Below the pieces are notes generated by a model. The model saw only the letters and a program-made list of their open reading frames with translations, was not told the origin of the DNA and ran no database searches. A stretch of 64,000 nucleotides of DNA from Podarcis pityusensis (taxonomy: Eukaryota). This document shows positions 8,670-52,427 of the stretch, one piece after another (position 1 is the first letter of the stretch; every line of letters begins with the position of its first letter). A program made the position numbers and the translations under genes. The stretch lies in assembly GCA_964106645.2 (NCBI GenBank), contig OZ067040.1; one strand, written 5' to 3'.

Positions 8670-8953
8670 CAGAATCCAGTACTAAAGTTATTTATGTCCA
8701 CACATACAAACACACACGTACACTTTATTCTGGAAAATATTTTCTTTACAGATATGCTGCTACTCTCTAAAAACTGGGATGAATGATTGGAGTTCAAATA
8801 TATATTTAAATAAACATATATGAGAATAACTTTCTGAAAGCATATTAGCCATTCTATACAATAGTAGCTGCCTAGAGAGTTTATAATGTACAAGTGGATT
8901 CAAATGTAAATAATAGGGGCAAATGTAAGTACAAAGCCTGCTTCAAGTGATTT

Positions 8954-9462
8954 TTGTTGTTTAGTCATTTAGTCGTGTCCGACTCTTCATGACCCCATGG
9001 ACCAGAGCACGCCAGGCACTCCTGTCTTCCACTGCCTCCCGCAGTTTGGTCAAACTCATGCTGGTAGCTTCGAGAACACTATCCAACCATCTCGTCCTCT
9101 GTTGTCCCCTTCTCCTTGTGCCCTCCATCTTTCCCAACATCAGGGTGTTTTCCAAGGAGTCTTCTCTTCTCATGAGGTGGCCAAAGTATTGGATCCTCAG
9201 CTTCACGATCTGTCCTTCCACTCAGGGCTGATTTCCTTCAGAATGGATAGGTTTGATCTTCTTGCAGTCCATGGAACTCTCAAGAGTCTCCTCCAGCACC
9301 ATAATTCAAAAGCATCAATTCTTCGGCGATCATCCTTCTTTATGGTCCAGCTTTCACTTCCATACATCACTACTGGGAAAACCATAGCTTTTACTATACG
9401 GACCTTTGTTGGCAAGGTGATGTCTCTACTTTTTAAGATGCTGTCTAGGTTTGTCATTGCTT
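8954..9462 (-). mobile_element. BovB (RTE) LINE, 5'-truncated
   Basis: RT C-terminus (DITLPTKVRIVKAMVFPVVMYGSESW...FELWCWRR), (CAA)n-type tail, TSD TTCAAGTGATTT (8942-8953, 9463-9474). Confidence 0.92.
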
Positions 9463-11444
9463 TTCAAGTGATTTAACCTTTTAAAATCTAAGAGCAGAAT
9501 GTTCTTTATTGTCCGTATGGAATTGTCTCCCCTGTGTCCTGTCCAGTCTGTAAGGGAGGTGGGAGACCACTTTCAGGCAGAGAGCCAGATCCAAAAGTAG
9601 CTAAACCTTCCAATCCAACTTCCATAGCAGATCTGATGCCTGTTACAAGCAGTATGGCTTGTATTGGCGCTAAATGCTGAATGCAAGCCACATCTGAAAA
9701 GGAATAATCAGGAGGTGCCTGACTGTTCCTTTGCAGTTGTCTGTCCTGGGCTTGATGTCCTATGTCATTACTTGAGTGGCCGGTGGGCATGGCCTAGTCA
9801 CACAGCCTTGTGTGCCTAACAGAACTGTCCTAAATGAACAACTGAATGAAGTAACTCATAGACATCCTTGTTACAAAATGCATATGATTTTCAATGTGAA
9901 GTTTGAGATGCTTTCAGTGTACTGAACTCCCTCTTTTATAATTTCTAACAATTATGACTAATGCATTGTCTGAAGCTCTGAAATCATTTTTGCTGATGTA
10001 GTTGTCAGTTATTTAAAAATAAAACTTCCCATTAACCTCCTGAGGATACAGCAGTCTAACTAGAAAGAATAATTTAAGTGTCACATTATCCATGCAGAAG
10101 ACTAGAGTACAGAATGTTTTGTCTTTCCCTTCAAAAATCTTTTTTTCAACATCTCAGGAGCAGCTAAGTTTGCCTCTGTTTCTGAAAACAGATGGGCTCA
10201 GATGGAATCACTAGAAAGCAGGGTGATTGCTGGGGTACTTGTGCCAATTTATTGTTTGGCTAGGAAAGCTGTTCCACTTTTAGTTCACTTGTCTTTGAAG
10301 ACTGCCAGCGAGATTAATTTCTGAAAAAACTGAAACTAGCAGGACACTCCAATGTCTTTTTAAAAGTTTCCAGCTCTTTTGGTTGCAGACAAAAGCATAA
10401 AATTATGACTTCAATAGGGCCTAATGGTTCAGAAAGCAAATAAAGGAACCTGTGTTTCTTTTAAAATCCATCTGGGTGATTATGAGGGATGGGAATAAAT
10501 TTCGAACACACAAGCTAACCATCTATTGCTTTACTGATGGTCAAGCAGGTCCCGGAACACTAATGTTCCATCAAGAACCCTCTTGTTCCTCTGATGAGGT
10601 TACCATGAACAAAAGGCTGTGGGTTTTGTTCAATACACGAAAGAGCCATCCAGTTTCCTGGCTGATTCAGGCTCCATAATTCCAAAACTTCCGCACATTT
10701 CCACGTTCTTTCTGTTGTTATTTGGAGAATAATCCTTCAAGTTTGAAAGGAAAGGAGAAGAAGCAGGCCGCCCCAATAATCTAACTCCAATGCTTACCCT
10801 ACACTCATACCCAAAACTTGCAGCAGAATGATGACCCACATGCTTACTTCAACATCTCTTCCCTAAATCATGGTGACTGGAGTGCACTGTGATTAAAAGT
10901 GGCACCAGTCCATCAAAATGAAAGGTATGCAAACCTCTCCATCCCCTTCGCTCTTGAGCTCTGGGTGTTTCCCCAGTCAGCTTGGTTTCGATTCACAAAA
11001 AAATTAAAGGTAGTGGGAAATGACTGCATTTAAGCTTATGAAAAAAGGAGGCAACTGAGAAGATTAGGTAGTCTCTGCTCTATCTCAATATGCCTTGTTA
11101 ATGGCACAATCTGACTTCGTAACCTGAAAAGCCACTCCAAATCAACCCTAATTGCCTGGTTATTTGGGGTACACAAACAGCCACTCCTGTTAATCACAGT
11201 CCTCAGGGACTGGGCAGAGATAGACGTCACCTGGAAGCAGCAATCAGCAGTGACTTGAAAGCAGATACCTGGACCAAAGGTGAAGTATGACAAGGAAAAG
11301 AAGCGGTAAGGCAGGAAGTTGACCAGATACATAAACTTCAGTACTATGGACAGCTCCTTATAAGGAAAAAACCACCACCCTGTTCTGTAAATCTATGGAG
11401 AAGAACATAGATAGGCCTGTGACATGTCAAAATACCATTCCCTT

Positions 11445-11784
11445 AAAGATAAAGGTAAAGGGACCCCTGACCATTAGGTCCAGTCGCGGACGACTCTGGG
11501 GTTGCGGCACTCATCTCACTTTACTGGCCGAGGGAGCTGGCATACAGCTTCCGGGTCATGTGGCCAGCATGACTAAGCCTCTTCTGGTGAACCAGAGCAG
11601 CACACAGAAACACTGGTCACCTTCCCGGCAGAGCGCTACCTATTTATCTACTTGCACTTCGTGCTTTCGAACTGCTAGGTTGGCAGGAGTAGGGACCGAG
11701 CAACAGGAGCTCACCCCATCGTGGGGATTCAAACCGCCAACCTTCTGATCGGCAAGCCCTAGGCTCTGTGGTTTAACCCACAGC
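11445..11784 (-). mobile_element. Sauria SINE
   Basis: tRNA-like head (GGCGGTTTGAATCCC B-box on the minus strand) and (ACCTTT)n tail; similar to four other copies in the window. Confidence 0.85.
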
Positions 11785-14700
11785 TGGCCTTTAATCTAGT
11801 ACACCTCTGGAGTTCTGTCATCTCCTGGAGAGTCTATTGTTGTTTCAGTCAAGAGAGAATAAATGAATATGGAGTCTTGGGCAATTGAAAGGTTGGCTCT
11901 TCAGATAACTCAGATGATCTGGTCTACTAATGCCAAACTCACAATGATTGGGGGGCTGTTCTGCTGTACTGGAGTCCATAATCTGCTGTCCCCAAAGGAG
12001 GCTATTTCCTTTCTATGGGGGCCATGTTACCAGGAGCTCCTAGAGCTCCAACTTAGCAGGTAGTTGTACCCACCCTGTGGATTCCCCTCGGGCCAGATGC
12101 CAAAGAGATAAACAATTATGTGATTTGGGGGGGACATGTGAAGGCAGCCCTGTTTCAGGAAGCTGTTAATGTTTGATATTGTGTCGTGTTCTTTTCCACT
12201 CTGTTGGAAGCTGCCCAAAGTGGCTGGGGCAACCCAGTTAGAGGGGTGGGGTACCAGAAATAAATCACTAAATGGCATATGCAATGGCTGCAATATGCAG
12301 TTCATTGGTTCACCATGCAGGTGAACTGCATTTTGCAACCTCAGCATAGGTGGCCACACACAAACTCTAACAACAACAACAACCCTGAACAGACCCCCAC
12401 TCACCCAGAATAGCTCTTTGATAAACCTGGAGGGGAAGGAGAATAAACTGTTTTTCCAGTGAAGACTTGCTTGAGCATCAATGTCTTACTCAGTTTGCTT
12501 TTGTATGTTCCTGTCAACATGGGAACTAGGTAACTAAGGATTATCTGCTCCCATATGAATCTGTCCAATAACCAATATCTTCTTTTGATACCTTTTGTCT
12601 TGAGTCCAAACTTCAGAAGTCAGACATGTGGCAACTGGAGAGAGTTTTCTGTACCCTAGTAGCAAAATACCTTTCCAAGCAACATTTGTCTGGCACCCAT
12701 TCTGAATTGTTTTAGGTGACAGGTTAAAACTATTTGATGTAATGAATTTCAGTGCTACTTTTGAGATATTCATTGTTGTTTCATTGATCTGTGCTGTGTT
12801 CTGATGGTTTAGTGAGATTGTAACTGGTAATTGTATTGTATTGCATTTTGTTGTATTTAATAATTGTATTGTATTGTATTATAATTGTATTGTATTTTAA
12901 TGAAGTTGGGTGATATCAAATCTTATTCATACATGGTTGGCTATCACCGGGGGGCATTAAAGAAGTTACAATTTTTTTAAAAATGTAAAGGCTATGTATA
13001 AATTCATTGAATAAAAAATACAATAGCCTACAGCATATCACATGCAGAATTACTGAAAATTCACCACTACTACACCTTCTTAACACAAAGCATTTTTTGG
13101 CATTTTAAATGCACTCTCATGTGCAATTCACCTCTCATTGAAATCAATGACAAAGTTCTCAGGGCTAAACTACTAATGATATCAAAATGGATAAACTGAA
13201 GTGTGGGAGTGGTGTTATAAGAATTTTAAAGCATACAGCATTGCATTTCTCTAACAGTAAAATGTAAAATGTTTGAAAACATTGTTCTCATTATTCGTAA
13301 AAAGGCTATTTTTAAAAAGGACATTTGGGTTATTTCCCTTCAGACTTGTTCATGAGATTAATATAGTGTTGGTGGCTGATCTCACATATGATACAGACAT
13401 CAAAGAGCAGAAGTTAATATATGCCTAAATGCTCAATATCCTTCATCAAAGAGCATAAGGTTTAATGTTCCAGCTACACAATACACACTATTACTAAATA
13501 CCAAAAGACAGAGTATGTCTTACGGTTGGCAAGTTTCTATTTCTTTCTATATATAAGAACCTTTGAATAGAAATTCATATTCAGGAATTAATATACTGTA
13601 TATAATATATAAACATACACATATATTCAACCTCTCTGTCTGCCCCAGAACCCCGAGTTGCAAAAAAGCCAAACCCTGCTTCGTGACCTCCTTGGCTGGA
13701 TTGTGTCCGTGAACTCTGATAACACTTAGCTACAGAATAAGGCTTGTCTGCAGAAAGTAGCCTACTGTATAAGGGCAAATTTTGCATGTGTTGCTCTGCC
13801 TACTTTATGGTCCCAACACCTAAAAAAGATTGTCCACAAGGGAACGTGGCCCTCAAACAGACAAAGTTCCCCTACTTCTGACTTAAGATAATATCATCCT
13901 TGTCAATGATAATAATGAATGAAGTCCAATCTCCATGCTACTTACTTTACAGTATTACAAAATGGAGGACTACATGATTTGAAAACTGCATATTAAGGAA
14001 ATGAGGCACTCCGCTGCCTCTGAAATTGAGCTTCATCAGAAATCTCATTCCAGCTAATTAAGCTTCTTGATCTTAGCATATTTTTGATAGGCAATTGAGT
14101 GATCAATGTGTGTTGTACAGCCCTTGATTGCCCAGGAAAATGAACTACAAGGGACAACACCTATTAAAACAAACCAATGGGCCACAATATCAAAAGAGCA
14201 AATTGGTGCTTGAGTAATTGAATAGTATAATAAAGAACATGAAACCCCTGAGAGGGAGTAATGCTAAAAATGAACGCTAGAGACATGAGGCTGCCATAAC
14301 GTATGGACTACATTCGTCTTGTTTAGTAACAAACAGTCTTACAAGCAATAAATGCTTTATTATATATCCATTTGCCTCTCTCTTCTGCACTTGTGAACGT
14401 AAGGAAGATTATATTGTTTCTCAGACTTCTGATAAGCAAGGCACACTTTTTCTGTTTTGAGATGGAAAGCACAATTCACTGTTACACGTAGGGTGGTTTA
14501 CTTTTACAAGGTGTAAATATTACCCATCCTCAGAGGAGCCTACACCATGATTGGAAGCAAGCAAGCTAAAGCTAAAAATTTGTGACAGGCAGCTTCCTCT
14601 GAGGACCGGATAATTGAGGTGCATTTCTCCTTTAGGAGTGATTGAACAGTCCAGTCACAGTGGATATGAAGACTTAATAGAATTATATGTGCCATGTAGA

Positions 14701-17649
14701 GGTTGACTGAAAGGAGACCATGCCAGAGCAATGAATCATGAAGATAAACAACAGGTGTCCTCTTGTGTTTCTACATGATTCCCGACTTCCCAGCCAAACC
14801 TTAGCCTTTTATCTCTCAGTGATTTCCATAGGCAAGAGTTCATTCTTCCACAGAAATTTAATGCTGCTTAAAATCCTACCAAACATTTGCCTGTCCCTTC
14901 ATAGGGAAAAGAGTCCACTGCGTATGTCTGGCCACAGCTGCTTCAGGATTGCTATCTTTCTCTCTGTGTGAAATTTCTTGCTTTTATTCAAAGACATAGA
15001 TGAGAGTGGCAAGATGCTTGATTTTCAGAAGGAAACAGAGCTGACCTAACTGTTAAAAGCCCTTCTCCACATACACAATGGTCACCACCAGTTTCCTAAG
15101 TAGCAAAGCTGGGTCCAGGAGTACCCAAGAGTGAACTCCTCTTCTGGCAGTCTTGAGCCCTCCAATAGCTTTACAGCAAAGGAAAATAATCTCAGAACGA
15201 CACAGCCAATCCAGTCGTGTGCTTCCTTAGCAAAAATCGCACCACTTTGCTTGGCTGCTCCACCATCCCTTCTTGGTTAACTGACTTCTTGATAGCAGAA
15301 TTTAACCCTTAAGTCACACATGGAATGATCTCAGCTGTTGCACTTCCAACATGATTGTTCCCAGCAACTTTACTGCTACCCACTGTTGCCAAGCTCCCTG
15401 TCTTGTTTTCTTCCTTCTCTACATTCATCCAAGTCACCTTTTGCTTCTAGCTACAAGAAACTAAAGAACACAGGGCTGCTCTCATGAAGACTATGATGAT
15501 GTTTGCAAGCTATTTGGACTTGGGACCAGCAATATTTAATAGTATTGCAGGATAAAAAATCGACTCCCCTTTCACCAAAAGCGAAAGTAAATTCTTCAGT
15601 GACTGCCAAACACAATTGCAACAAAGAATCCTATATTGGCAGGGCACATAGGAAATATATATAAAAAGAGCTTGTTTTATGTGCTGTCTGGGAGCTTGCA
15701 AGGCAGAAAAGCTTCTGCCTACAAAAGAATACAAATGCTCCAACAAAATAAATCAAAATACTTTTATGTAATTTCCTTCTTTTTAAAAAAAAATCCTCCA
15801 AGGTAGCATGTTAATGCAATGCATTAGAGCTTCCTGGCAACACACAAAAAAAATCATATAATTTACTCTGTACTTACTGCCAACAATAGTTCCAAAACCA
15901 TTGTGATGAATGGGTTCGTTTATTACAAGTGCTAGTGTTCTGGATTAAAGGAATGCCAAATGGGTCTAGGCATTTCAAGAGGAAATAGATATATATGATT
16001 TACAGCAGAAAGTTTGCTGTGGTACCTTGACTTCATATAATCGGAATAAAAGGGGGAGGGAGTCCACATGAAAGCCATTATGTAACAGTATCTTTCTTTA
16101 GTCAAGGAAACATGAACTAAAGCACAATATGCTTTTCATTTCTGTAGAAACAGTGAATACACTTGTTTAGACTGCAAAAGTGAGAAAGATAATGATGTGA
16201 AAACACATTTGTAACAGTTGCTGAACAAACTAGGTTTGGCACAGTTTTGTGTTATAGTCCCTTCTCAAGTAGTAGTGCACTGAGTAGACAAAAGAAAAGT
16301 ACTGTAATTGAAGCACTTAATGTACCTAAACACATTCTTTCCTTTTTAAGGGTCAGAGCACACATTTAACTGACTAAGGATATTAATCAACATAGTGGCT
16401 GGTTTACATTTATCTCCATTCTGGACAGCACAGTTTTCAGACTGTATGCCCTTTGGGGTAGAATTTCCTGTTTAAATTGTGTATGTAGCCATGTACGCTG
16501 ATGGTGCTATATAAATAAATGTTAACAACAACAACCACAGTAAGAACTACTTATCACATGGATCACTACTATCACACTGTGAGTTTCTATGCCAGGAGCA
16601 GGGAACCTCTGGCAGAAAGCACTCAACATGGCACCCCATTCCAAGCAGCCTGCCCATGTTAAGTGTAACTTTTGGTCCAGCAACAATTAATGCCATGCTA
16701 TGTCTTATTCAACCATGACCATAGAAGGAAAAATAGCTGTACTACAACATAGGACCCTTAAAGGAAAGGGGCAATAATTTAAGAGTGCAAGAATCCAGTT
16801 GGATCAGATGAGAGAGAGAGGTGGTGGGATATTTTTTTTCTATGCCAAAGTGTCACTTTTGAAAAAAAGACAGCTTGTGAGTATTATGTTAGAGCTTTAT
16901 TAAAAAATATGTTAAAAAATATATTAGAACTCATGCACTACCCAATGAAGTGGGTTGGCAGCATATTTAAGCTGGATGAATACATAATTAATTTATAGAA
17001 TTGAATACAGTTCTGGGGGACAGGTCTGTTGATGGGTATTAGCCTGCAGGCTAATGGAATAAATGGGAATGTGCCTCTGAATGCCAGTTGCTGGGAGGTA
17101 AACAATGAGAGAGGGTTTCCCAGAAGCATCTGCTTGGCCACTGTTGAAACACAATGCTAGAGTAGGTATCCAACAGGGTTTTGCTCAAGTTCTTTCTTAT
17201 ATCCATCTACTTCGGAATCCTTTCCTAAACACTGGCCAAACAGATGCTTCCAGGAACTCCACAACAAGCCATTCATGAAAGCAACACCCCCTCCTTGTTG
17301 TTTGTCCCCAGCATATGTTATTCAGCAGTGTTATTCAGTAGTATACAAAATAGCATTTAAAGGGCAAAATATTTAACTTAATGCAAACACATGCACACAA
17401 TCTAGTTTATGTGACTCACTTGTCTCTCTTTTCTTTCTGCCTTAGTATAGCTGACTACTCATGAGGTGGGGCATGTGGACACCATGCGACCAGCTGAAAT
17501 CTTGATCAATTTCCCTTCCAGGATACAAGTACCAAGATACTCTCAAAGCATGATGACACAGATTTGAGAGTAAAAACCTGATAGGGGGCATTGCCAGATT
17601 ATCAGAGGCCAGGTTAAGGAATTAAGACAGAAAGAGCAATCTAGAACTG

Positions 17650-18189
17650 TGAAGGGAAGTTTTCTTTCTGCAGTTCTCTCACTGTGAAGTTCTCTTTCTG
17701 CAGTTCTCTTACTGCACATAACTCTTGGATTCTGGGAAGTCTTGCTCATAATCTTTTCTCTGCTTCTGCACAAGAGTCTGAGAATGTTCTGAACAGTTCC
17801 CATTGAGTTCATGAAACAGTGTATCCTGACCTGTTCTTAATGCATTGCTGACCACATTTACGGAACGTGATTGTTGTATTCCTTCATGTTATGTTCTCTC
17901 AATATCAATCTTTAGTTATAATTTAATTAGGAGGATTCATGCCTGTCTAGCTCCAGCTCCGTTCCCAGTCTTTGAACTATCAGTGATTAATGTAATATGT
18001 TATTCCCGCCTTGTACCTATGTTAACCAATCAGCAACAAGATGCTTTGTGTTTGTATCAACCAATCAGCCACAAGCACACCTGTGGCAATGTTTGTAATA
18101 TTCAGTAAAAGAGAGTTCCCGGGGCTTGCCCCGGCAGACGCCTCTCCTTTGACACTCACCACTCGTCTGTCGTGATTTTCAACCCAACA
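17650..18189 (+). repeat. 5' LTR (540 bp)
   Basis: TGAAGG...CCCAACA. ~30-bp tandem repeat at the U3 start, two AACCAATCAGC CCAAT boxes, AGTAAA at 18104-18109. No difference from the 3' LTR seen by eye. Confidence 0.97.
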
Positions 18190-18191
18190 TC

Positions 18192-18208
18192 TGGTGACCC
18201 CTGACGTG
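18192..18208 (+). promoter_or_regulatory. Primer-binding site, tRNA-Trp-like
   Basis: TGGTGACCCCTGACGTG lies 2 nt after the LTR. It matches the ASLV tRNA-Trp PBS TGGTGACCCCGACGTGAT with one extra T. Confidence 0.8.
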
Positions 18209-18279
18209 CCAGATCCCTTACGCAGCCAAACCTCATACTTCACCCGACTGGAAAAGTCTCAGCGCGCTACTTCGTGAGT

Positions 18280-19725
18280 ATGGGAGGGGACTTGACTAAA
18301 TTCCAGAAAGAGCATGCTAAAGAATTGCTTTATTTAGTTAGACAGCAGGAGGTGGGTGTTAATATTTCCTTAAAAGAAATTGAACGATTGCTATGTGAGA
18401 TTAATTGCCAATGCTCCTTTTATCCTGAGGCTGGTTCCTTGGAGGTAGAGACTTGGCAAAAGATCGGAAAGACCCTGTTTGCTGAACCTAGGGCTCCGAT
18501 TCATTGTCTGCTCACTTGGCAGAAATGTGCTGATGCCGTTGCTAAATTACCACAGGCGTCTCGCTCGCCACCAGCACTTTTCGCCATCGCAGACAATCCC
18601 CCCCCTTACCCGAAACTTTTACCTCCTTCTCCCAGCCAATCCCTCCCTGCGTCTCATCCTCCTCAGCCTGATTCCTCCCCCCCCATCCCTCCTCCTCCTG
18701 CCACAGCCCCTGTTTGCTCTATAGGAGCTGTGCGCGCTGCGCTCTCTCTGGCAAGGCAGAAAGGGCTCCTGTCCTTAGAGGAGGAGTCTGAGTGGCCAGG
18801 TGAAATGCCATCTGCTTTCCCTATCTCTTATTCAAACCCTGGAACTGCTCAACAGCAGATTTATTATGAATCGCTTCCTTATTCTGTAATGAGGGAATTA
18901 AGGAAAGCCATTGCTGATTCTGGTCTGAAATCCTCTTATGTGACGGGAATGCTAGAGAGCATAGCAACTGGTTACATTATGCTACCTCAGGACTGGAAAG
19001 ACCTGATGCGCATGCTTTTGTCCCCTGCTCAGTATGTGGTGTTTGAGAGTGAATTTAAACATAGCGCTTCAGCCCTGTCTGATCCGCAACATACTGCCAA
19101 TGAACTTTATGGCGCTGGTCAGTTTGCTGATATAACTGCCCAAGCAACACTGACACCTGTACATTTTGTTCGCACCGCGACCTGTGTACAACGCGCCTTT
19201 CGGAAAGTCCCTGTTTCTGGGCAACCGCTGAGCTCCTTTGTAAATATTAAGCAACAGCATTCGGAGCCATACCATCAGTTTATAGATAGATTGAAAGAAT
19301 CAGTCACTAGGCAGATTGATAACACCACTGCTCAAAATGAATTGATGAAAAAATTGGCCTTTGAAAACGCAAACACTGATTGCAAGAAAGCTTTGCAGTC
19401 AATCATACATCGCCCTAAATATGAACTGGCCGATATGATTCAAGCTTGTGCGGATGTCGGTAGCCAGAGCCATGCGATGTCTTTGCTTGCCGGCGCAATC
19501 CAAGCAACCTCTAAGCCTACTGGTAACTGCTTTAATTGCAAGCGCCCAGGCCATTTTGCCAAGCAATGCAGAGCCCCTGGCGGGGGGGCACACAAGGATG
19601 GTGCTGCCTCTAAGGCTAAACCTTCTAAAAAGTGCCCGAAATGTGGCAAAGGCTATCATTGGGCTAATCAATGCCGGAGTTCGGGAAACTGCATTACGGC
19701 CTCTCTCTCGGGCCAGGGCAATTAG
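18280..19725 (+). CDS. gag: Gag polyprotein (481 aa), betaretrovirus-like
   Basis: Met-Gly start, PPPY late domain, MHR (IKQQHSEPYHQFIDRL), and two CCHC knuckles (CFNCKRPGHFAKQC, CPKCGKGYHWANQC). Splice-donor-like GTGAGT immediately upstream (18274-18279). Confidence 0.95.
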   Translation: MGGDLTKFQKEHAKELLYLVRQQEVGVNISLKEIERLLCEINCQCSFYPEAGSLEVETWQKIGKTLFAEPRAPIHCLLTWQKCADAVAKLPQASRSPPALFAIADNPPPYPKLLPPSPSQSLPASHPPQPDSSPPIPPPPATAPVCSIGAVRAALSLARQKGLLSLEEESEWPGEMPSAFPISYSNPGTAQQQIYYESLPYSVMRELRKAIADSGLKSSYVTGMLESIATGYIMLPQDWKDLMRMLLSPAQYVVFESEFKHSASALSDPQHTANELYGAGQFADITAQATLTPVHFVRTATCVQRAFRKVPVSGQPLSSFVNIKQQHSEPYHQFIDRLKESVTRQIDNTTAQNELMKKLAFENANTDCKKALQSIIHRPKYELADMIQACADVGSQSHAMSLLAGAIQATSKPTGNCFNCKRPGHFAKQCRAPGGGAHKDGAASKAKPSKKCPKCGKGYHWANQCRSSGNCITASLSGQGN

Positions 19726-19730
19726 AGAGA
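19683..19730 (+). promoter_or_regulatory. -1 ribosomal frameshift signal (G GGA AAC plus predicted pseudoknot)
   Basis: Heptamer in gag register at 19683-19689; pro is in the -1 frame. Stems GGCC/GGCC and TCTCTCT/AGAGAGA lie downstream. Confidence 0.8.
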
Positions 19731-20453
19731 TTTCCACCTTTAATTTCTGCTGCTGCAAACTTTTCAAAAAACACACCCTCTGAATTTGCCATTGATTTGA
19801 TCAATCAAGAGACCAAAGACTCTGTTTTACCTGGTGAAATTGTGCTTATGCCCACTCAATTGGCAGGTCCCCTGCCTCCTAAAGTCGCAGGTTTAATTTT
19901 ACCCAAATTTTCTGCGGCAAAGGAAGGAATCCAGGTTATTCCTGGAGTTCTGGATCCTGACTATGTAGGCACAATAATGGTTCAACTCTGGAGCCATATG
20001 CCCATGCAATTAAAAAAGGGTGAGTCTTGGGCGCATTTGGTGGTGCTCCCTTCTCATCCTACTGCTTCTATTATGGATACTAATTTGCACGAGCTCTCTT
20101 CTTTCCCTCCACAGCTGTTAGCTGTAGTCCAGAGGATTGGTGAGAAGAAACTTCTTCGTAAGTATAAAATCAATGGTATTGTGCTGGAAGGCTTGATTGA
20201 CACAGGCGCAGACGTTTCTGTAATTTCTAGTAGTTGCTGGGACCCCACGTGGCCCCTTGAGTCTGCCTCTGCTGTCTGGGGTGTGGGTGGCCCCCAAACC
20301 TCTTCCAAAAGCGTACAGTGGCTGCCTGTTTCTCTGCCTGATAGCTCTGAAACCATTGCTTACATCCAGCCCTGTGTGCTGAAAATCCACCTCAATCTGT
20401 GGGGAAGAGACTTACTACAGCAATTACAAGCTACCATTCAATTTAATGAGTAA
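19683..20453 (+). CDS. pro: dUTPase-like domain plus aspartic protease (pro), expressed by frameshift
   Basis: GVLDPDYVGTI (dUTPase motif 3), LIDTGADVSVI (catalytic DTG) and NLWGRDLL. The frame is open to the TAA at 20451-20453. Confidence 0.93.
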   Translation, partial: GKLHYGLSLGPGQLERFPPLISAAANFSKNTPSEFAIDLINQETKDSVLPGEIVLMPTQLAGPLPPKVAGLILPKFSAAKEGIQVIPGVLDPDYVGTIMVQLWSHMPMQLKKGESWAHLVVLPSHPTASIMDTNLHELSSFPPQLLAVVQRIGEKKLLRKYKINGIVLEGLIDTGADVSVISSSCWDPTWPLESASAVWGVGGPQTSSKSVQWLPVSLPDSSETIAYIQPCVLKIHLNLWGRDLLQQLQATIQFNE

Positions 20454-20495
20454 GCTTGCACTTCCCCTCAACTGGAAATCTTCTGGTCGTGTCCT

Positions 20496-21241
20496 GGCTA
20501 TACGTTTAATCACATTCCAGCAAACATCAGCCATGGCACACCTTGCTGTTTAAGCTGTTTGTCCATCATTTTATCGCTGCAATATTTAATTGACTAATGA
20601 TTGTGATGCTTTTGTCTCTCTTCTCAGTAGGTCTGAATATATCTCTTTAGCTGTTTCTCTCTTAGGAGTCCCTGGATTGGCTGTACGGAATCGAATGAAC
20701 ATTATTTCTTTAGCTCATTATGCAGCAAAAACCCTGAATTTTACTTCACAACCTCTTCACCTTTTGAATAAAGAACAGAGTGGACTATATAATGGACTTT
20801 TACGAAATCGTGCTGCTATCACTATTTGCTGATACTTCATCATTATGGCTGTGAACAAGTGAATGACATGTGTTGTTTCAATATTACTGACAATTCAAGA
20901 GCCATTCAAAGTCAAATCCCTCATTTGCAAAATCTTACACATCACATTAAACAGGACATTGGTTTTCCTGGCCTCTGGGATTACACATTAAACAGGACAT
21001 TGATTTTCCTGGCCTCTGGGATTCTTTCACCCAGTGGCTTACCGCTTGGTTGCCAAACTTGAATTGGCTTCGTAATCTCTTTCAATATGCTATTTTTATA
21101 ATTTGTATTCTTATTTTACTATGCTGTTTCCTTCAATGCGTTCCTAGCCTCCTGAGTCTTTTCTCTCGGCTTCTCTCCCCCCCTCCACCACCCAGTAAAC
21201 TCCTTGCTGCTTACATTGCGAAATGGCAACACCAACAGTAA
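20496..21241 (+). pseudogene. env: env remnant (SU C-terminus and TM), ASLV-like gamma-type TM
   Basis: ISD-like LRNRAAI|DYLL is restored by adding one base at 20820/20821. CX6CC motif CEQVNDMCCFNITD and membrane anchor YAIFIICILILLCCFLQC. A ~41-bp tandem duplication lies at ~20943-21023. Confidence 0.88.
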
Positions 21242-21407
21242 ACCTTAGGGGAGATGTGGGCGGATTTATTTTGGGCATGCGCTGGCAAACCACGTATCCT
21301 GAAGTATTTTTGCCCCATCGACCCTGGCAGGCTTATTTCGGGCATTCGCTGGCACACCACTAATCCCGAAGTATTTTTGCCTTATCTACCTAGAACGCCT
21401 CGCAAAC

Positions 21408-21426
21408 AAGAAAAGAAAGGGGGAGA
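21408..21426 (+). promoter_or_regulatory. Polypurine tract
   Basis: AAGAAAAGAAAGGGGGAGA immediately before the 3' LTR. Confidence 0.92.
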
Positions 21427-21966
21427 TGAAGGGAAGTTTTCTTTCTGCAGTTCTCTCACTGTGAAGTTCTCTTTCTGCAGTTCTCTTACTGCACATAACT
21501 CTTGGATTCTGGGAAGTCTTGCTCATAATCTTTTCTCTGCTTCTGCACAAGAGTCTGAGAATGTTCTGAACAGTTCCCATTGAGTTCATGAAACAGTGTA
21601 TCCTGACCTGTTCTTAATGCATTGCTGACCACATTTACGGAACGTGATTGTTGTATTCCTTCATGTTATGTTCTCTCAATATCAATCTTTAGTTATAATT
21701 TAATTAGGAGGATTCATGCCTGTCTAGCTCCAGCTCCGTTCCCAGTCTTTGAACTATCAGTGATTAATGTAATATGTTATTCCCGCCTTGTACCTATGTT
21801 AACCAATCAGCAACAAGATGCTTTGTGTTTGTATCAACCAATCAGCCACAAGCACACCTGTGGCAATGTTTGTAATATTCAGTAAAAGAGAGTTCCCGGG
21901 GCTTGCCCCGGCAGACGCCTCTCCTTTGACACTCACCACTCGTCTGTCGTGATTTTCAACCCAACA
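21427..21966 (+). repeat. 3' LTR (540 bp)
   Basis: Direct repeat of 17650-18189, followed by TSD GAACTG. Confidence 0.97.
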
Positions 21967-22194
21967 GAACTGAAAGCAGGTAAGTGGTGCAAAAGGAGTA
22001 GAATAGCCTAAAAGTGGATTGTATCCAAAGTAGTTCCATCAGCACAATGATTTACACTTGCACAACATAACTTTTCCACATCTCCTCCCTCTTTGCCCCC
22101 CAAATCTGTTCTGGGTCCCCTCCCCCATCCTCTGGAGCAGATTTGGGGAGACAACATTCCACTGCACAAGTATAAATCCTTCCGCTAATGAATT

Positions 22195-22271
22195 AAGACA
22201 GGAGTGCCTGGCGTGCTCTGGTCCATGGGGTCACAAAGAGTCGGACACGACTAAACGACTAAACAACAACA
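22195..22271 (+). mobile_element. BovB 3'-end fragment
   Basis: Reverse complement of the BovB 3' terminus near 8955-9030, with a (AAC)n tail. Confidence 0.8.
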
Positions 22272-22368
22272 ATGGATTAAGGGCACCAGATATGCCCAGT
22301 GTTTCTTCTTAATGATGAGAATGAAATAGTATCCAAATAGCCTCTAAGAATGTCTCATAGGGAATCTG

Positions 22369-22600
22369 GCACAGGGCCTTCTTGGTAGTGGTGCCCACCC
22401 TGTGGAATGCCCTCCTACCAGATGTTAAGGAGATGAGTAATTATATAACATTTAGGAAACATCAGAAGGCAGCCATATATAGGGAAGCTTTTTAAGGTTT
22501 AATCTTTTATTATGCCTTTATATATGCTGGAAGTCGCCCAGAGTGGCTGGGGCAACCCAGTCAGATGGGTGGGGTACGAATAATAAATTATTATTATTAT
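22369..22600 (+). mobile_element. L2-clade LINE 3' fragment
   Basis: RAF-V-P-LWNALP C-terminus and (ATT)n tail; same family as 23374-23790 and 48744-49115. Confidence 0.75.
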
Positions 22601-22739
22601 CATCTGAATATAAGGAGAGCACTGCTATACCAGACCAAAGGCCTATTTGGCACAGTATCCTGTTTCCTAACATGGCCAACCAGATGTATCCAGAAAGCCT
22701 AAAACTAATATATGCTATTCAGGGGCATGTAACCATATA

Positions 22740-22981
22740 CAGTGGTACCTCGGGTTAAGTACTTAATTCGGTCCGGAGGTCCGTACTTAACCTGAAACTG
22801 TTCTTAACCTGAAGCACCACTTTAGCTAATGGGGCCTCCTGCTGCCGCCACGCCACCAGAGCACGATCTCTGTTCTCATCCTGAAGCAAAGTTCTTAACC
22901 TGAAGAACTATTTCTGGGTTAGCGGAGTCTGTAACCTGAAGCATATGTAAGCTGAAGCGTATGTAACCTGAGATACCACTG
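22740..22981. mobile_element. Tc1/mariner-type MITE
   Basis: Imperfect TIRs CAGTGGTACCTCGGGTTA...TAACCTGAGATACCACTG, with TA on both sides. Confidence 0.85.
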
Positions 22982-24874: not shown

Positions 24875-25074
24875 NNNNNNNNNNNNNNNNNNNNNNNNNN
24901 NNNNNNNNNNNNNNNNNNNNNNNNNNNNNNNNNNNNNNNNNNNNNNNNNNNNNNNNNNNNNNNNNNNNNNNNNNNNNNNNNNNNNNNNNNNNNNNNNNNN
25001 NNNNNNNNNNNNNNNNNNNNNNNNNNNNNNNNNNNNNNNNNNNNNNNNNNNNNNNNNNNNNNNNNNNNNNNNNN
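24875..25074. other. Assembly gap (200 N)
   Basis: Run of N. Confidence 1.
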
Positions 25075-25505: not shown

Positions 25506-26422
25506 TTGTTGTTTAGTCGTTTAGTCGTGTCCGACTCTTCGTGACCCCATGGACCAGCGCATACCAGGCACTCCTGTCTTCCACTGCCTCCCGCAGTTTG
25601 GTCAAACTCATGTTGGTAGCTTTGAGAACACTGTCCAACCTGTTGGGATTCGTTAGATCCCAACACAACCATCTCGTCCTCTGTTGTCCCCTTCTCCTTG
25701 TGCCCTCAATCTTTTCCAACATCAGGGTCTTTTCCAGGGAGTCTTCTCTTCTCATGTGGTGGCCATATTGGAGCCTCAGCTTCACGACCTGTCCTTCCAG
25801 TGAGCACTCAGGGCTGATTTCCTTAAGAATGGATAGGTTTGATCTTCTTGCAGTCCATGGGACTCTCAAGAGTCTCCTCCAGCACCATAATTCAAAAGCA
25901 TCAATTCTTCGACAATCAGCCTTCTTTATGCTCCAGCTCTCACTTCCATACATCACTACTGGGAAAACCATAGCTTTAACTATACGGACCTTTGTCGTCA
26001 AGGTGATGTCTCTGCTTTTTAAGATGCTGTCTAGGTTTGTCATTGCTTTTCTCCCAAGAAGCAGGCGTCTTTTAATTTCGTGACTGCTGTCACCATCTGC
26101 AGTGATCATGGAGCCCAGGAAAGTAAAATCTTTCACTGCCTCCATTTCTTCCCCTTCTATTTGCCAGGAAGTGATGGGACCAGTGGCCATGATCTTAGTT
26201 TTTTTGATGTTGACCTTCAGACCATATTTTGCACTCTCGTCTTTCAACCTTATTAAAAGGTTCTTTAATTCCTCCTCACTTTCTGCCATCAAGGTTGTGT
26301 CATCTGCATATCTGAGGTTGTTGATATTTCTTCTGGCAATCTTAATTCCAGCTTGGGATTCATCCAGCCCAGTCTTTAGCATGATGAATTCTGCATATAG
26401 ATTAAATAAGCAGGGAGACAAT
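25506..26422 (-). mobile_element. BovB (RTE) LINE, RT C-terminal part
   Basis: 302-aa open frame with LSPCLFNLY and NNLRYADDTTL RT motifs; (CAA)n-type tail. Confidence 0.95.
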
Positions 26423-26425
26423 ATA

Positions 26426-26615
26426 CAGTGGTACCTCGGGTTAAGTACTTAATTCGTTCTGGAGGTCCATTCTTAACCTGAAACTGTTCTTAACCTGAAG
26501 CACCACTTTAGCTAATGGGGCCTCCTGCTGCCGCCGCACCGCCGGAGCACTATTTCTGTTCTTATCCTGAAGCAAAGTTCTTAACCCTGTTCTTATCCTG
26601 AAGCAAAGTTCTTAA
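26426..26615. mobile_element. Truncated mariner-type MITE inserted in BovB
   Basis: TA followed by CAGTGGTACCTCGGGTTAAG, same family as 22740. The right TIR is missing and the copy ends in a ~28-bp duplication. Confidence 0.8.
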
Positions 26616-27479: not shown

Positions 27480-29400
27480 GATAGAACTTTAATGGGACAA
27501 CAAGTGATAAAACTGTTGGATTATATAAATGGGGCAGAAGGAACTGCAATTATAACTTTTATAGATGTGAAAAAGCTTTTGATAGGATCAAGTGGTTCTA
27601 TCTTTTTCAGGTGATGCAGAAATTGTCTGGCCACACAGACAATATAATTAGTGAATGATAGATTGTCATCATAGTTTTACTTGCAGAAAGGAAAAAGACA
27701 AGATTGCCCAGTATCATCATACTTTTCCATTGTATTTAGATTGTTTCCTGATTAAGATATGGGATAACACTAAAATGAAAGAGCAGAAGATGGCAAAGCA
27801 GAAATTTAAACTTTGTGGATATGCAGATAACGTAGCTCTAATAATTACTGAACCAGAAAGGTCACTAGCTTAGTTTATGAATTTGTTAGATTTCTTTAGA
27901 AAAGTAAAGGTAAAGGTAAAGGTAAAGGTACCCCTGCCCGTACGGGCTAGTCTTGACAGACTCTAGAGTTGTGCACTCATCTCACTCTATAGGCCGGGAG
28001 CCAGCGCTGTCCGCAGACACTTCCGGGTCACGTGGCCAGCATGACAAGCTGCATCTGGCGAGCCAGCGCAGCACATGGAACGCCGTTTACCTTCCCGCTG
28101 GTAAGCGGTCCCTATTTATCTACATGCACCCGGGGGTGCTTTCGAACTGCTAGGTTGGCAGGTGCTGGGACTGAACGACGGGCGTGCACCCCGCCGTGGG
28201 GATTCGAACCGCCAACCATGCAATCGGCAAGTCCTAGGTGCTGAGGTTTTACCCACAGCGCCACCCGCGTCCCTTTCTAGAAAAGTAGCGGAATATAAAA
28301 TTAATATTAATAAAATATAATTGTTATCTTACAGCTTTCAGGACAACAATTAAGAAGATTAAGAGAATAAAAAGAAAAATCCAGATTGGTGTTTTTAAAA
28401 CCTGAAATATATGTTAGAAGCAAATATGAAAGCAGAGCAGGAAATATGGAGATTTATTAAATTTATTATTTTTGGAAGAATATCAACATTAAAAGTAATA
28501 TTCTTTATAAAATAACATTTTTGTTGCTGCATACACAAATAGCTAAAAGAGAGCTAAAAATGGATGCATGACAGTGAATTGTGAATGGTTTTTTCTAAAA
28601 TAATGTGCACCAACAGGGCTGAAGAAGATCTTTCATTTCCAGCTAATTATCATGTTGATTGTTTGGGAAGGATTGTAGATTGGTATTTTTAACTAAATAA
28701 AAATTTCAGAAATCATTTGGTACAATTTTTTGTTGGAAGCTGACAGAAAGTGCTTTTTGAAAATAAAAATAGAAACGTAGCAAAAAGGATTAATAGTGCC
28801 CCCTGTCCCCTGTTTTATGGGAATTTTTTAAAAAAACTACTTCTGCATTTCAAAATGCCCATTAACTTTTCAGCTATTTTAGCCACAATTTAACAAAATT
28901 GGAAATGACACTGACAAATTTGTTGATTGGATTAATAATGGCCAGATCAAGTTCTTCAGTCATCCAAGGGAAAAGCTGAGTGATACAAGGCCCGTATTAT
29001 TTGAACATTGTCAAATAAAAGATTTTCTAAACAATTGGCTAAGAACTCAAGAAAGTGGATTGAGACAGATGTATTCTTTGGAAAGATTAATATTTTTATC
29101 AGCCACGTTGTCTCAAATATATCAAATTATAATGTATAAGGAAGAGGATAAAAGTGGATTACATTCAAAAATGGGGGGGGGGATATGGGAGAAAAGATTT
29201 TGGAAGCTATGTGGAAAATTTAGATAAATATGCAGAAGTCTGAAACAATGTACACCAGCAGGGATGAATGATAAAAGAAAAATAAATCGCAGCAATATCT
29301 AATTATGAATCTATTAAACAAAGACTAAAATAGCTCTAGAAATGTTAAGATGCTAAAATGTTAAAATGTGTTTTATTATGTTGCAGCTAGAACAACTTGT
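27480..29400 (+). mobile_element. Old degraded L1-like ORF2 remnant, interrupted by a SINE
   Basis: D-EKAFDRI-W-like motif near 27562-27596 and YADNVAL (YADD-like) near 27820. A-rich; boundaries approximate. Confidence 0.55.
27906..28273 (-). mobile_element. Sauria SINE
   Basis: (ACCTTT)n tail, tRNA-like head, flanking repeat TAGAAAAGTA. Confidence 0.88.
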
Positions 29401-35324: not shown

Positions 35325-37474
35325 ACTTCCGGGTCAGTGCCATCGGTGAATGGCGGAGTTCCTCCGACCGGAGGAACTAGCTCCATGAAAACTGGGTCTT
35401 CCCGCCGCAGCGAAGGCGGGGACCCGCTAGAAATCCCAGGCGGAGGAAGCCTGGGAACGTGGGGTTCGGCAGGGCACCAGAAGCACGCCCCCTACTCACC
35501 GGGAACCCCTTTTTGGGGCACCGGATCGAAGCGGGGTGAGCGGCGCGGTGCTGCGAACTGATTGCTACTTTCACGGAGTGAAGCCGCACAGCCATTGCCG
35601 GAGAGCGCTGACTTTTTCCTGTGGACAATTGGATTTAAAACAGGTACCCGTGAGTAGAAACGGAAAATTAGATCAAGAAATATCTTAATTTGGCATCAAA
35701 GCGGGAAGGTTCAAAACAGGAAGTCCGCCTTCCGCTTTTTGTATATAGACTAAAGCAAAAACTTCGTAAGCTAAAGCCTGGAAAGCTGTCAAAAAAGTCT
35801 AAATTTCCTTCATTCAGAACTACTGAAACACCCTTGGAAGCAGGAGAAAAGGGGGGGGGAATTTTGTTTAACCCCTGCAGGAGAGGGAGTGAGAAGGAAG
35901 AGTTTCCACCGTCTCTAACCTGGGCACGGGGTGTCAGAGACAGAAACTGTAGGTTCATTGACTGTGAATGGAATATTTTGGCAGATAGTTAAAGAAGAGA
36001 AACAAGCTGATTCCAATGTTGCCTTTTGCATCTTAAAGAAACAAAATATCCAAAAAATATCTGAAAAATGAAAGTAATTTTCCTTTGTTGGACTTGCCTT
36101 AAAAAAAAAAATGGATACAAATAGAAATTGTCTCCTCTAGAGGGAGCTTGTTAAATTGTTGCAGCAGTATACTTGAGGACTCAACAGCTGTGAGATTAAG
36201 ACCGTGGGAACAGTCTTTTCTGACCTTGCCTAAAGATGAGCTGGGAGGAAGATTGGGTGCTTGCCTTATGCAAGACAAGTGCCCTGTTGCAACAGATGCA
36301 TGAGAAGATGGACTTGATGAATGAAAAAATGGATTTGACTGTTGTGGTTAATAACTGTGGACAAACAGGGAACATTGATACAGAAATTATTCAGGGACCA
36401 ACTCATGAAGCTGTACTGACTGGGCAAGAACAGAAGATAATGGAGGAGGATGCGGTTGCACCTCAAATAATACAAATGGAGAGACCCGAGGCCCTACAGG
36501 AGCATAAGCTGCTGTCATTGAAGATTGAAGTTGGAATGGGCCAGGGGGAGTCTGGTGCTGAGGAGGTTCCTAACTTTGGAGAGACCTTGAAATATGTTTT
36601 TAAATACTTTTTGGATTTTATCGAGGACTGTGGGGAGTGGGACTCTGGGGAATGGGTGGGTCTGATGAAGGGAGATGGAGACAAATCTGGGTTGGAACCC
36701 CCCAGACAACTACTCCTCAATGAGAAAGGAAAGGAATTAAGAAAGAGACCAACAAAAGACAAGGAAAAGGGCAAGTATAAACAAGAAGAAGAAGAAATGC
36801 AGAAGGGACATGGAAGAGACTTAAGGGCCTCGGACATAAGGCTTCCAGGTTGATGGACTAGATGGATTGGACAGTAAGGACTGACACGATCCGAGACCAG
36901 GAAGATGAGACGTTGGATGAAGATTGGAAGAAAATTTATAAAGGAAACTTTTTATTTAGGGAATTAGTTAAAAATTAATGAATATTAGGGAAAATGTTGG
37001 AATGAAACTATATGACTCTAGCAGAAGTGATATCAGGAGTTATGTATATTTGAAAACTAAGATTTAAGCTTTAAGGTATTTTAGGGTAAGATAAGGTTAA
37101 ATAAATTAAGGTAATTTGAATAACAGAATATGGGGAAAGATGGTAAGGATTTGCTGAGCTAATTATTAAGTTAAACTGTCAAGATAAATTTTTTAACAAA
37201 AATTGAGAAAGATGGAAAGAATTTGCTGAAATAACTAATTAAACTAGAATACAAAAAGGGAGGTGTGAGGAGGTCAATGAAACAAGCAAATGGAAGTTAT
37301 AGATATGTAATTTGGGATCTATGTTGTTTTCTTTTTTCTTTTGTTTTCCATTTTTCTTTTTATTTTTTTGTTATATTGTTGTTGTTGTTTTCTATGTATT
37401 GTAGTGTTGTTTTTAATTTTTCTTTTTTCTTTATAACTTTGAAACTACTAATAAATATTATTTTAAAAAACAAA
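35325..37474 (+). mobile_element. Non-autonomous L1-type retroelement, copy B (~2.15 kb, apparently full length)
   Basis: TSD CAAAAGGCAACGTGGAGAG (35306-35324, 37475-37493). CpG-rich 5' end (G)ACTTCCGGGTCAG, AATAAA and A-tail. 3' UTR shared with the L1 fragment at 47336. Confidence 0.88.
36236..36853 (+). CDS. 205-aa ORF of the non-autonomous element (possibly derived from L1 ORF1)
   Basis: Open frame, also preserved in copy A apart from one stop. The N-terminus is heptad-like. ORF1 origin is an inference. Confidence 0.5.
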   Translation: MSWEEDWVLALCKTSALLQQMHEKMDLMNEKMDLTVVVNNCGQTGNIDTEIIQGPTHEAVLTGQEQKIMEEDAVAPQIIQMERPEALQEHKLLSLKIEVGMGQGESGAEEVPNFGETLKYVFKYFLDFIEDCGEWDSGEWVGLMKGDGDKSGLEPPRQLLLNEKGKELRKRPTKDKEKGKYKQEEEEMQKGHGRDLRASDIRLPG

Positions 37475-42568: not shown

Positions 42569-42919
42569 AAAGGTAAAGGGACCCCTGACCATTAGGTCCA
42601 ACCGTGGCTGACTCTGGGGTTGCAGCGCTCATCTTGCTTTATTGGCCGAGGGAGCCGGCGTAAAGCTTCCGGGTCATGTGGCCAGCATGACTAAGCCGCT
42701 TCTGGTGAACCAGAGCAGCGCACGGAAACGCCGTTTACCTTCCCGCCGGAGAAGTACCTATTTATCTACTTGCACTTTGATGTGCTTTCAAACTGCTAGG
42801 TTGGCAGGAGCAGGGACCGAGCAACGGGAGCTCACCCCGTCGCGGGGATTCGAACCGCCGACCTTCTGATCGGCAATTCCTAGGCTCTGTGGTTTAACCC
42901 ACAGCGCCACCCGCGTCCC
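42569..42919 (-). mobile_element. Sauria SINE
   Basis: Full-length head GGGACGCGGGTGGCGCTGTGG and ACCTTT tail. Confidence 0.9.
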
Positions 42920-51763: not shown

Positions 51764-52136
51764 TGGTAAAGGTAAAGGTAAAGGACCCCTGAGAGTTAAG
51801 TCCAGTCGTGAATGACTCTGGAATTGCGGCCCTCATCTCGCTTTACTGGCTGAGGGAGCCGGCATTTGTCTGCAGACAGTTTTTCCAGATCATGTGGCCA
51901 GCATAACTAAGCTGCTTCTGGCGAAACCAGAGCAGTGCATGGAAACGCCATTTACCTTCCCACTGGAGCAGTACCTATTTATCTACTTGCAGTTTGATGT
52001 GCTTTCAAACTGCTAGGTTGGCAGGAGCTGGGACTGAGCAACGGGAGCTCACCCCATCGAAGGGATTCGAACCTCCAACCTTCCAATCGGCAAGCCCTAG
52101 GCTCAGTGGTTTAGACCACAGCGCCACCCACGTCCC
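51764..52136 (-). mobile_element. Sauria SINE
   Basis: Same head and tail as the other copies. Confidence 0.87.
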
Positions 52137-52427
52137 TCACAGTAAGTGGTCCCAAATAGTGATGCTATCTAAAGTGTGTGTCACACTTACAGGCTTGCCA
52201 TCAGCATCTGATTGGCCACTATGAGAGTGGGGTTTAATTGGTTTAATTCACACAGAAATGGGAAAATGCCTATGTGTATTAATGAAGGTTTAAAATGGAA
52301 AATGGCTAAATGTGTAGCACTAACATTGGGGTTTTTCCACAGTAATTTTCTAAGAGAATCTAAGTGCCTAAATGGGTTAATGATTACCTGTTGATTGTTT
52401 TCTGTTACTCTAAACTGAATGTAACCT

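Follow-up and report, generated by a model that had tools for sequence, protein, structure and literature searches.

An endogenous retrovirus (ERV) that pairs a gag and a pro of betaretroviral (beta) type with a primer-binding site and an envelope of alpharetroviral (alpha) type raises the question of how these parts came together. We analyzed such an element, at 17650-21966, in a stretch of 64,000 nucleotides (nt) from the lizard Podarcis pityusensis (assembly GCA_964106645.2, contig OZ067040.1; "the window" is this whole stretch). An earlier note had described the mixed beta/alpha anatomy from the sequence alone, and all of the features that it listed were found where it had placed them. It had missed the lack of pol and of autonomy in this copy, the degenerate state of its dUTPase, and the leader of apparent beta type in the envelope of the family. 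The provirus descends by deletion from a class II ERV family of Podarcis and is nonautonomous and pol-less. Our preferred reading, to which we assign a probability of about 0.6, is that it is a young derivative of this kind and that the family consists of a beta-like backbone that took up alpha-type surface (SU) and transmembrane (TM) subunits behind its own Rec/Rem-like leader.

A young provirus without pol

The proviral frame is complete, and its parts are as follows (coordinates in the window, strand, feature).

17650-21966, +, complete proviral frame, 4.3 kb, with two long terminal repeats (LTRs), target duplication, and polypurine tract
17644-17649 (left copy) and 21967-21972 (right copy), +, target-site duplication GAACTG, 6 nt
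17650-18189, +, 5' LTR, 540 nt, TG...CA ends
18192-18210, +, primer-binding site of the avian sarcoma/leukosis virus (ASLV; tRNA-Trp) type, with one extra base
18280-19725, +, gag, open, 481 amino acids (aa): matrix (Gag_p10), PPPY motif, capsid (CA), and two zinc knuckles
19668-20453, +, pro, open, 261 aa, −1 frame, heptamer GGGAAAC at 19683
about 19800-20060, +, degenerate dUTPase-like domain (Pfam dUTPase, E 3e-11)
about 20160-20440, +, aspartyl protease (PR) domain (Pfam RVP, E 3e-14)
20446-20480, +, pol stub of about 12 codons, +1 frame relative to pro; no other part of pol remains
20481-21241, +, env remnant in pieces: end of SU and alpha-type TM
about 20570-20590, +, env break near the SU/TM cleavage site
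about 20821, +, env break in the immunosuppressive domain (ISD)
20943-21023, +, 41-nt tandem duplication breaking env
21258-21382, +, tandem pair of 58-nt hairpins, downstream of env and upstream of the polypurine tract (repeat D15)
21408-21426, +, polypurine tract ahead of the 3' LTR
21427-21966, +, 3' LTR, 540 nt

The two LTRs were identical (0 differences in 540 positions). Read contigs from four lizard runs (4 of 23 listed, under three organism labels; the species may differ from that of the window, and such contigs show presence only) joined position 17642 directly to 21966 in all four cases, with one GAACTG left, and the left flank of this empty site in run X5 differed from the window at 1 of 843 bases. 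Since the LTRs are identical and the empty site occurs in 4/4 runs, the insertion is very young, and it is probably unfixed. In three of the runs, contigs inside the element were about 100-fold deeper than the flanks, a ratio that is not a copy number, and this excess depth hints at many copies of the family. Differences among family copies in gag and pro were synonymous in 12 of 17 cases against an expected 29% (p 4e-4; counted on the 40 best-supported of 283 rows, with 4 gag-pro overlap rows and all flank, LTR, and env rows excluded), an excess that argues for purifying selection on gag and pro of the family.

The window copy is itself a defective passenger that cannot make reverse transcriptase (RT), integrase (IN), or a working envelope. 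One contig under a second organism label (run X7, record 28) covers 20532-20681 without gaps, across the break near the SU/TM cleavage site; because this lesion is common to organism labels, the defective sublineage predates the insertion in the window. The pol stub corresponds to the RT start of the sister copy P0025 and runs, near 20480, into the end of SU; env has lost its leader and the larger part of SU. Where a betaretrovirus has pol in −1 relative to pro, the stub is in +1 without a canonical heptamer; among the reference loci, 17/19 have pol in −1 and two of squirrel monkey retrovirus (SMRV) type in +1. The ATG of the stub overlaps the stop of pro (ATG-AG-TAA, 20446-20453, +1 frame), and Pol predictions that start 19 to 24 residues before the QWP motif make up 8/9 of those in the clade described below and 14/78 of the others. 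The +1 stub may be a shared lesion, a gene-caller artifact (alternative starts being written as M), or a trace of some way of making Pol without −1 frameshifting.

Gag and pro resemble those of betaretroviruses

Gag contains the Pfam domains Gag_p10, Gag_p24, Gag_p24_C, zf-CCHC, and zf-CCHC_5, the last being the second knuckle, of the GYHW type that the earlier note had recognized (E 6e-11). The separate −1 pro frame, another of its observations, was likewise confirmed; GGGAAAC also stands upstream of the gag stop in 4/5 reference loci examined, and no stable structure was found downstream of the heptamer (z +0.8). Alpharetroviruses have pro in frame with gag and no dUTPase. The window copy has instead the separate −1 pro with an N-terminal dUTPase that marks betaretroviruses, though four of the five dUTPase motifs have decayed. 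The dUTPase-like domain is still recognized by Pfam, but motif 3 alone is intact (in what we take to be the usual numbering); motifs 1, 2, 4, and 5 are degenerate in the window copy and in P0017 and P0027, one of which bears IN, and all five are present in the relative P0045. Judged from its motifs, the domain of the window copy is most likely inactive. Pro contains no G-patch.

The best PDB matches of Gag, PR, and dUTPase were betaretroviral. PR was 28 to 41% identical to seven of eight beta-type rows and 24% to the eighth, versus 24 to 28% to alpha rows, and it grouped with beta in a tree from which 2/16 rows were omitted (support 87/92). One stretch within gag (18495-18624) was the most structured of 65 windows over the provirus (z −4.9) and is a possible packaging or export element.

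The primer site is of ASLV type

ASLV is primed by tRNA-Trp. The primer site of the window copy was identical to that of the ASLV-type reference L005 at 16/18 positions, apart from one extra base, and scored 12 against L005, 1 to 6 against five other references, and 2 to 6 against four beta references; it is not the tRNA-Lys site of betaretroviruses. The earlier assignment to tRNA-Trp is plausible, but it is made by the match to ASLV and not from lizard tRNA 3' ends, and the site is imperfect; the 64-kb window contains no tRNA genes. The extra base (18202) is missing in 11 to 21% of the contig depth in three runs and in about half of it in the fourth, and both forms of the site coexist in the family. 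No printed Trp primer site was found in the literature searched. The LTR has a candidate poly(A) signal, AGTAAA at 18104, and neither AATAAA nor ATTAAA; AGTAAA occurs near the LTR 3' end in 1/8 references, L003, of the mouse mammary tumor virus (MMTV) type.

The envelope remnant is of alpha type

The TM pieces of the window copy are spread over three frames. The piece with the CX6CC motif had the ASLV fusion TM as its best PDB match (E 1.5e-5) and scored 27 to 34 bits on three avian alpha-type references and no more than 10 on any of the ten others listed, out of 14 references. No env piece was recognized by Pfam (best E 0.17). By itself, the N-terminal TM piece had no PDB match other than a reptarenavirus-type GP2 (E 0.13). 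The sister P0042, a 491-aa env that is 84% identical to the first TM piece of the window, matched ASLV at 2e-13, reptarenavirus and filovirus GP2 at about 1e-7, syncytin-2 at 4e-6, and a murine leukemia virus (MLV)-related protein at 1.5, and the sister TM scored 87 to 97 bits on ASLV versus at most 32 on gammaretroviral (gamma) references. P0042 has the cysteine-flanked internal fusion peptide, the ISD, and the CX6CC motif by which alpha-type envelopes are defined (PMC13568524; bioRxiv 2021.11.23.469661; here and below, papers are cited for what the accessible portions of their text state); beta-type TMs have neither ISD nor CX6CC. Of the two cysteines that flank the fusion peptide, the window copy keeps the first, N-terminal one, to which the earlier note had drawn attention, but the second is missing.

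In a tree of 44 TM rows, which took 28 of 150 relatives from the env search besides P0042, both window pieces grouped with P0042 (100/98) within an alpha-type clade (100/97) that stood apart from gamma and type-D TMs (97/91). The avian alpha TMs were nested in this clade as a clade of their own (98/98), with the window outside it. The likeness to ASLV claimed for the TM is upheld, and the grouping with gammaretroviral TMs that the earlier note had named as evidence to the contrary was not seen.

The TM tree bears on a conventional explanation, by which the element would be an ordinary betaretrovirus-like ERV, a type-D analogue placed among mammalian betaretroviruses and provided with a gamma-type envelope, its alpha likeness and Trp site being coincidental. 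The betaretroviral PDB matches of Gag, PR, and dUTPase, the grouping of PR with beta, and the imperfect primer site agree with it. It is nonetheless very unlikely, given the split of the TM from gamma and type-D TMs and the bit scores of the sister TM, and given that both Pol trees exclude the family from the mammalian crown and that nesting with MMTV is rejected (see below).

An assembly chimera, or a chance pairing of two unrelated ERV fragments inside one LTR pair, is hardly credible. The env is heavily broken, and none of the contigs listed crosses the junction of pol and env or covers the element in full, as this explanation would have it; but the Podarcis predictions P0004, P0019, P0025, and P0044 carry this gag/pro together with this env stretch, P0045 combines a dUTPase with this env type in one predicted protein, depth is continuous over the element in 4/4 runs, and the IN end and the env leader overlap in frame.

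Intact relatives carry a Rec/Rem-like leader

The env of P0042 begins with a leader of about 98 residues, with a basic stretch and a helix-like block ahead of the hydrophobic core, which is conserved in seven relatives. It overlaps the IN end of sister P0027 in the +1 frame (31/36 positions compatible versus a mean of 21%), and because of this in-frame overlap we take it to be the family's own env start. HERV-K_REC was the sole Pfam match of the P0042 leader (E 0.011); it matched 4/8 relatives (E 0.075 to 1.6e-5) and neither of two ASLV leaders. A profile of eight leaders scored 16.9 bits on the MMTV-type leader, compared with 7.4 for the best of 500 shuffles, at most 1.0 for other references, and at most −1.3 for ASLV. 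From the subthreshold HERV-K_REC matches and this profile score, the leader is likely homologous to Rec/Rem, the proteins by which mammalian betaretroviruses export their RNA. The best reading of the family env is that it would be a mosaic within env itself, a beta-type leader joined to an alpha-type SU/TM. A Pol subclade that contains snakes does not have the leader-IN overlap signature (at most 8/14 versus 10 to 12/14), which suggests env exchange inside the clade. The signal peptides of avian leukosis virus, MLV, and human T-cell leukemia virus are short and those of betaretroviruses long and multifunctional (PMC9967133). The open-access literature searched held no report of a Rec/Rem-like leader in reptiles; the original ERV-AB paper (see below) may cover leader, dUTPase, and primer site.

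The twin hairpins downstream of env (z −6.0; by strand, −4.9 for plus and +0.7 for minus) keep their pairing at 5/7 varying pairs, one through a double change; a two-sequence shuffle control was uninformative (271/500). Rfam gave no match other than two chance ones. When compared with the env-LTR regions of eight references from alpha and beta, the hairpins did not align better than shuffles did, so they are not recognizably a constitutive transport element or direct repeat 1. Their position suggests a candidate RNA export or packaging element, and no report of twin hairpins between env and the polypurine tract was found in the literature searched.

The family belongs to a reptile-caecilian clade of class II

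The closest relatives of Gag were Podarcis lilfordi and P. muralis proteins (78 to 99% identity), followed at 31 to 57% by proteins of tortoise, Anolis, Pogona, Rhineura, caecilian, sea turtles, gecko, and cobra; some of the Podarcis sister predictions bear RT or IN domains. In a tree of CA and nucleocapsid (NC), the window fell in a 20-row reptile-caecilian clade (100/99) that forms a three-way fork with alpha and beta. The caecilian (Rhinatrema) Gag in this clade is 52% identical over CA-NC. The squamate lineage proposed earlier is therefore too narrow, for the Gag clade also holds tortoise, sea turtle, and caecilian proteins. The reference retroviruses of our comparisons were drawn from viral contigs, and we presume their names from length, layout, and motifs, with the ASLV type backed by the alignment to the PDB entry for the ASLV fusion TM.

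Since the window copy has no RT, Podarcis RT and IN pieces were entered in the Pol trees as separate rows. Both fell in one clade with Pols of Naja, Thamnophis, and others (100/100 and 100/99), within the alpha+beta clade (100/99), and the Pols of the clade have YMDD. This agrees with class II, in which RT and IN cluster with alpha, beta, and delta rather than gamma. The family's clade lay outside the mammalian beta crown in both trees (99/97 and 95/98) and was not part of the avian alpha clade; its branching order relative to alpha and avian beta had no firm support. Nesting with MMTV was rejected (Pol, p-AU 5e-80 in the approximately unbiased [AU] test; both AU tests reported here were chosen after the free tree had been seen). 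IN scored 231 bits on the MMTV type versus 149 on the ASLV type, with the same order in a second comparison, and RT was 56 to 60% identical on the beta side versus 53% on the alpha side. By sequence similarity, the core (IN and PR) is clearly nearer beta. The earlier notion of an intermediate lineage is half right: Pol and Gag place the family in a separate clade of class II that the mammalian beta crown does not include, and sisterhood with alpha is neither supported nor rejected, but IN and PR lean to beta.

Searches of viral and metagenome contigs gave no DNA sequence from the reptile clade; full-length matches reached at most about 43%, with short or broken ones higher. P0040 is not HERV-K-like, since it groups with SMRV in the Gag tree. 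The annotation assigns P0009, a Gag of the reptile clade with 48% identity, to the tick Nuttalliella namaqua; it probably derives from a reptile blood meal, and no pertinent paper turned up in the literature searched. The reference L001 has ASLV-like Gag, Pol, and TM of avian type and yet a separate pro frame with GGGAAAC, which fits the description of "alphabeta" ERVs.

Envelope capture or ancestral state

By our preferred reading, the parent family would belong to the reptile-caecilian clade, of the ERV-AB kind, and its beta-like core would be the separate −1 pro with a dUTPase relic, the MMTV-like IN, and the AGTAAA signal. The leader, which overlaps the IN end, would for this reason travel with pol, and the alpha-type SU/TM may have come from a pool of alpha-like envelopes circulating among reptiles, the presumed direction of exchange. 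The window copy would be transcribed from its own LTR, with Gag and Gag-Pro made in cis; its RNA would be packaged with Pol supplied in trans by fuller copies, primed by tRNA-Trp, and reinserted inside germ cells without an envelope. Env would then be dispensable, hence its decay in the window copy.

Several observations weigh against this reading. An env swap cannot itself account for an ASLV-type primer site at the opposite end of the genome. Support at the class II root is low (80/59; 39/24 and 58/81), and a grouping of the reptile clade with alpha is not rejected, nor supported (p-AU 0.2). The references are without HERV-K, python ERV, lymphoproliferative disease virus, and ERV-AB-Mun. The RT of the family is known from other Podarcis copies than its IN, all of them machine predictions, and no single complete provirus was seen as DNA. 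All Rec matches of the leader lie below the Pfam curated cutoff (at most 25.3 versus 27.5 bits), and 4/8 relatives have none; ENTV-type leaders (enzootic nasal tumor virus) score at most 1.0 bit on the leader profile; and in the protein atlas the leader had no Rec-like cluster, no match at 0.9, and no informative structural match.

Some of these points are those expected if no envelope was captured and the clade has kept what the alpha-beta ancestor had: a Trp primer, an alpha-type SU/TM, a dUTPase, a separate pro, and a Rec-like leader. Alpharetroviruses would then have lost dUTPase, leader, and gag-pro frameshift, and crown betaretroviruses would have changed primer and envelope; the window copy would be nonautonomous all the same. 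The primer site is the main point in its favor, because an env exchange leaves it unexplained and because it and the alpha-type TM stand at opposite genome ends. The clade also sits at the base of class II, with reptile-plus-alpha not rejected, the avian alpha TMs nest within wider alpha-like TMs, ERV-AB pol and env are nearest alpha (PMC12690878), and the dUTPase is intact in P0045 and decayed in Podarcis. However, IN, PR, and Gag are much nearer beta by similarity, primer types are labile among ERVs (PMC8922424), avibeta2 using Phe (PMC3482500), alpha-like envelopes move freely across pol classes, and part of the Pol clade has no leader overlap. We regard an ancestral state as possible but less likely. 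A further, rather doubtful idea is that a Rec/Rem-type export leader predates the beta crown, with the twin hairpins as its response element, the elements being living relics of the alpha-beta ancestor that go on spreading in wall lizards and whose pol-less copies use the export protein in trans.

The breadth of the clade, which takes in lizards, snakes, tortoises, sea turtles, and a caecilian, and the position of its alpha-type TMs beyond the avian ones suggest that reptiles are the reservoir; the clade also provides taxa that have been missing when the split between alpha and beta is rooted. If the alpha-type SU/TM indeed follows a Rec/Rem-like leader, this would break the signal-peptide rule of PMC9967133 and place an exchange point inside env. 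If leader and hairpins were an export pair, Rev-like regulation would be older than the beta crown. Unfixed insertions would offer a usable marker for wall-lizard populations.

Other features of the window

Two related RT-like fragments of long interspersed elements, which we take to be of the Bov-B/RTE type, lie at 25513-26448 (−) and 8947-9476 (repeats D5, D9, and D12). Dispersed repeats at 11444-11799, 27911-28274, 42562-42920, 51766-52773, and 22195-22950 resemble short interspersed elements, presumably Sauria SINE-like. An open frame of 209 codons at 36224-36853 (+), rich in Glu and Lys, is possibly a retroelement ORF1 fragment, and a gap of 200 N bases spans 24875-25074.

Comparison with known systems

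Like ASLV, the lizard family has a Trp-type primer site, a cysteine-flanked internal fusion peptide, a similar ISD and CX6CC, and a 6-nt target duplication; unlike ASLV, it has a dUTPase relic, a GYHW knuckle, a beta-like IN and PR, and a long env leader, and neither its TM nor its Pol falls within the avian alpha clade. With MMTV, HERV-K(HML-2), and jaagsiekte sheep retrovirus/ENTV it shares the −1 gag-pro frameshift, a dUTPase at the N terminus of pro, the zf-CCHC_5 knuckle, and an env leader of more than 90 residues that overlaps IN, and AGTAAA recurs in the MMTV-type reference. It differs from betaretroviruses in a primer site that is not Lys, a covalent-type (ISD, CX6CC) TM in place of the beta type, a degenerate dUTPase, the absence of a G-patch, and its place outside the crown clade.

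ETn/MusD and deleted intracisternal A-type particles (IAPs) are nonautonomous members of ERV pairs. The window copy resembles them in being pol-less with LTRs, primer site, and polypurine tract intact and in its apparent amplification in trans, and it differs in keeping gag and pro open and in its lineage.

ERV-AB-Mun, a caecilian ERV, was reportedly first described by Chen, Guo, and Zhang in 2021. It combines a class II pol, a separate pro, and an alpha-like env in 202 near-identical copies (PMC12690878). The lizard family has the same three features by which the ERV-AB kind is recognized, and many young copies with identical LTRs as well (PMC12690878; bioRxiv 2024.07.05.601823); it differs in its host and in the pol deletion of the window copy, a comparison made by description, with ERV-AB-Mun not in the trees. 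Only three class II ERVs were counted in ectotherms, the caecilian one being ascribed to a jump from birds (PMC12690878). Avian ERVs form a continuum from beta to alpha, and their "alphabeta" members share the separate pro frame but are defined by the absence of dUTPase (PMC3482500).

Alpha-like envelopes are ubiquitous in reptiles, and those of reptiles and bats (Mabuya Mab3/Mab4-like and CHIRalphaEnv) are of the same type as that of the lizard family, although CHIRalphaEnv has a 16- to 32-aa signal peptide and a gamma-type pol (PMC13568524). Such envelopes are also found on epsilon and ERV-L pols (bioRxiv 2024.07.05.601823). Table J of the PMC13568524 supplement has 14 Podarcis loci with ORFs of 347 to 459 aa, which may belong to the lizard family. 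The earlier note had allowed that the element might belong to a family already described, and this is partly so, through the ERV-AB kind in caecilians (PMC12690878) and the alpha-like envelopes in Podarcis (PMC13568524 supplement). No paper on a beta-like ERV of Podarcis or squamates was found in the open-access literature searched. The headline combination of a beta core and an alpha env is already published in these two forms; the lizard family varies it in that its alpha-type envelope has a Rec/Rem-like leader, its dUTPase has decayed, its clade reaches widely across reptiles, and a pol-less sublineage is still spreading.

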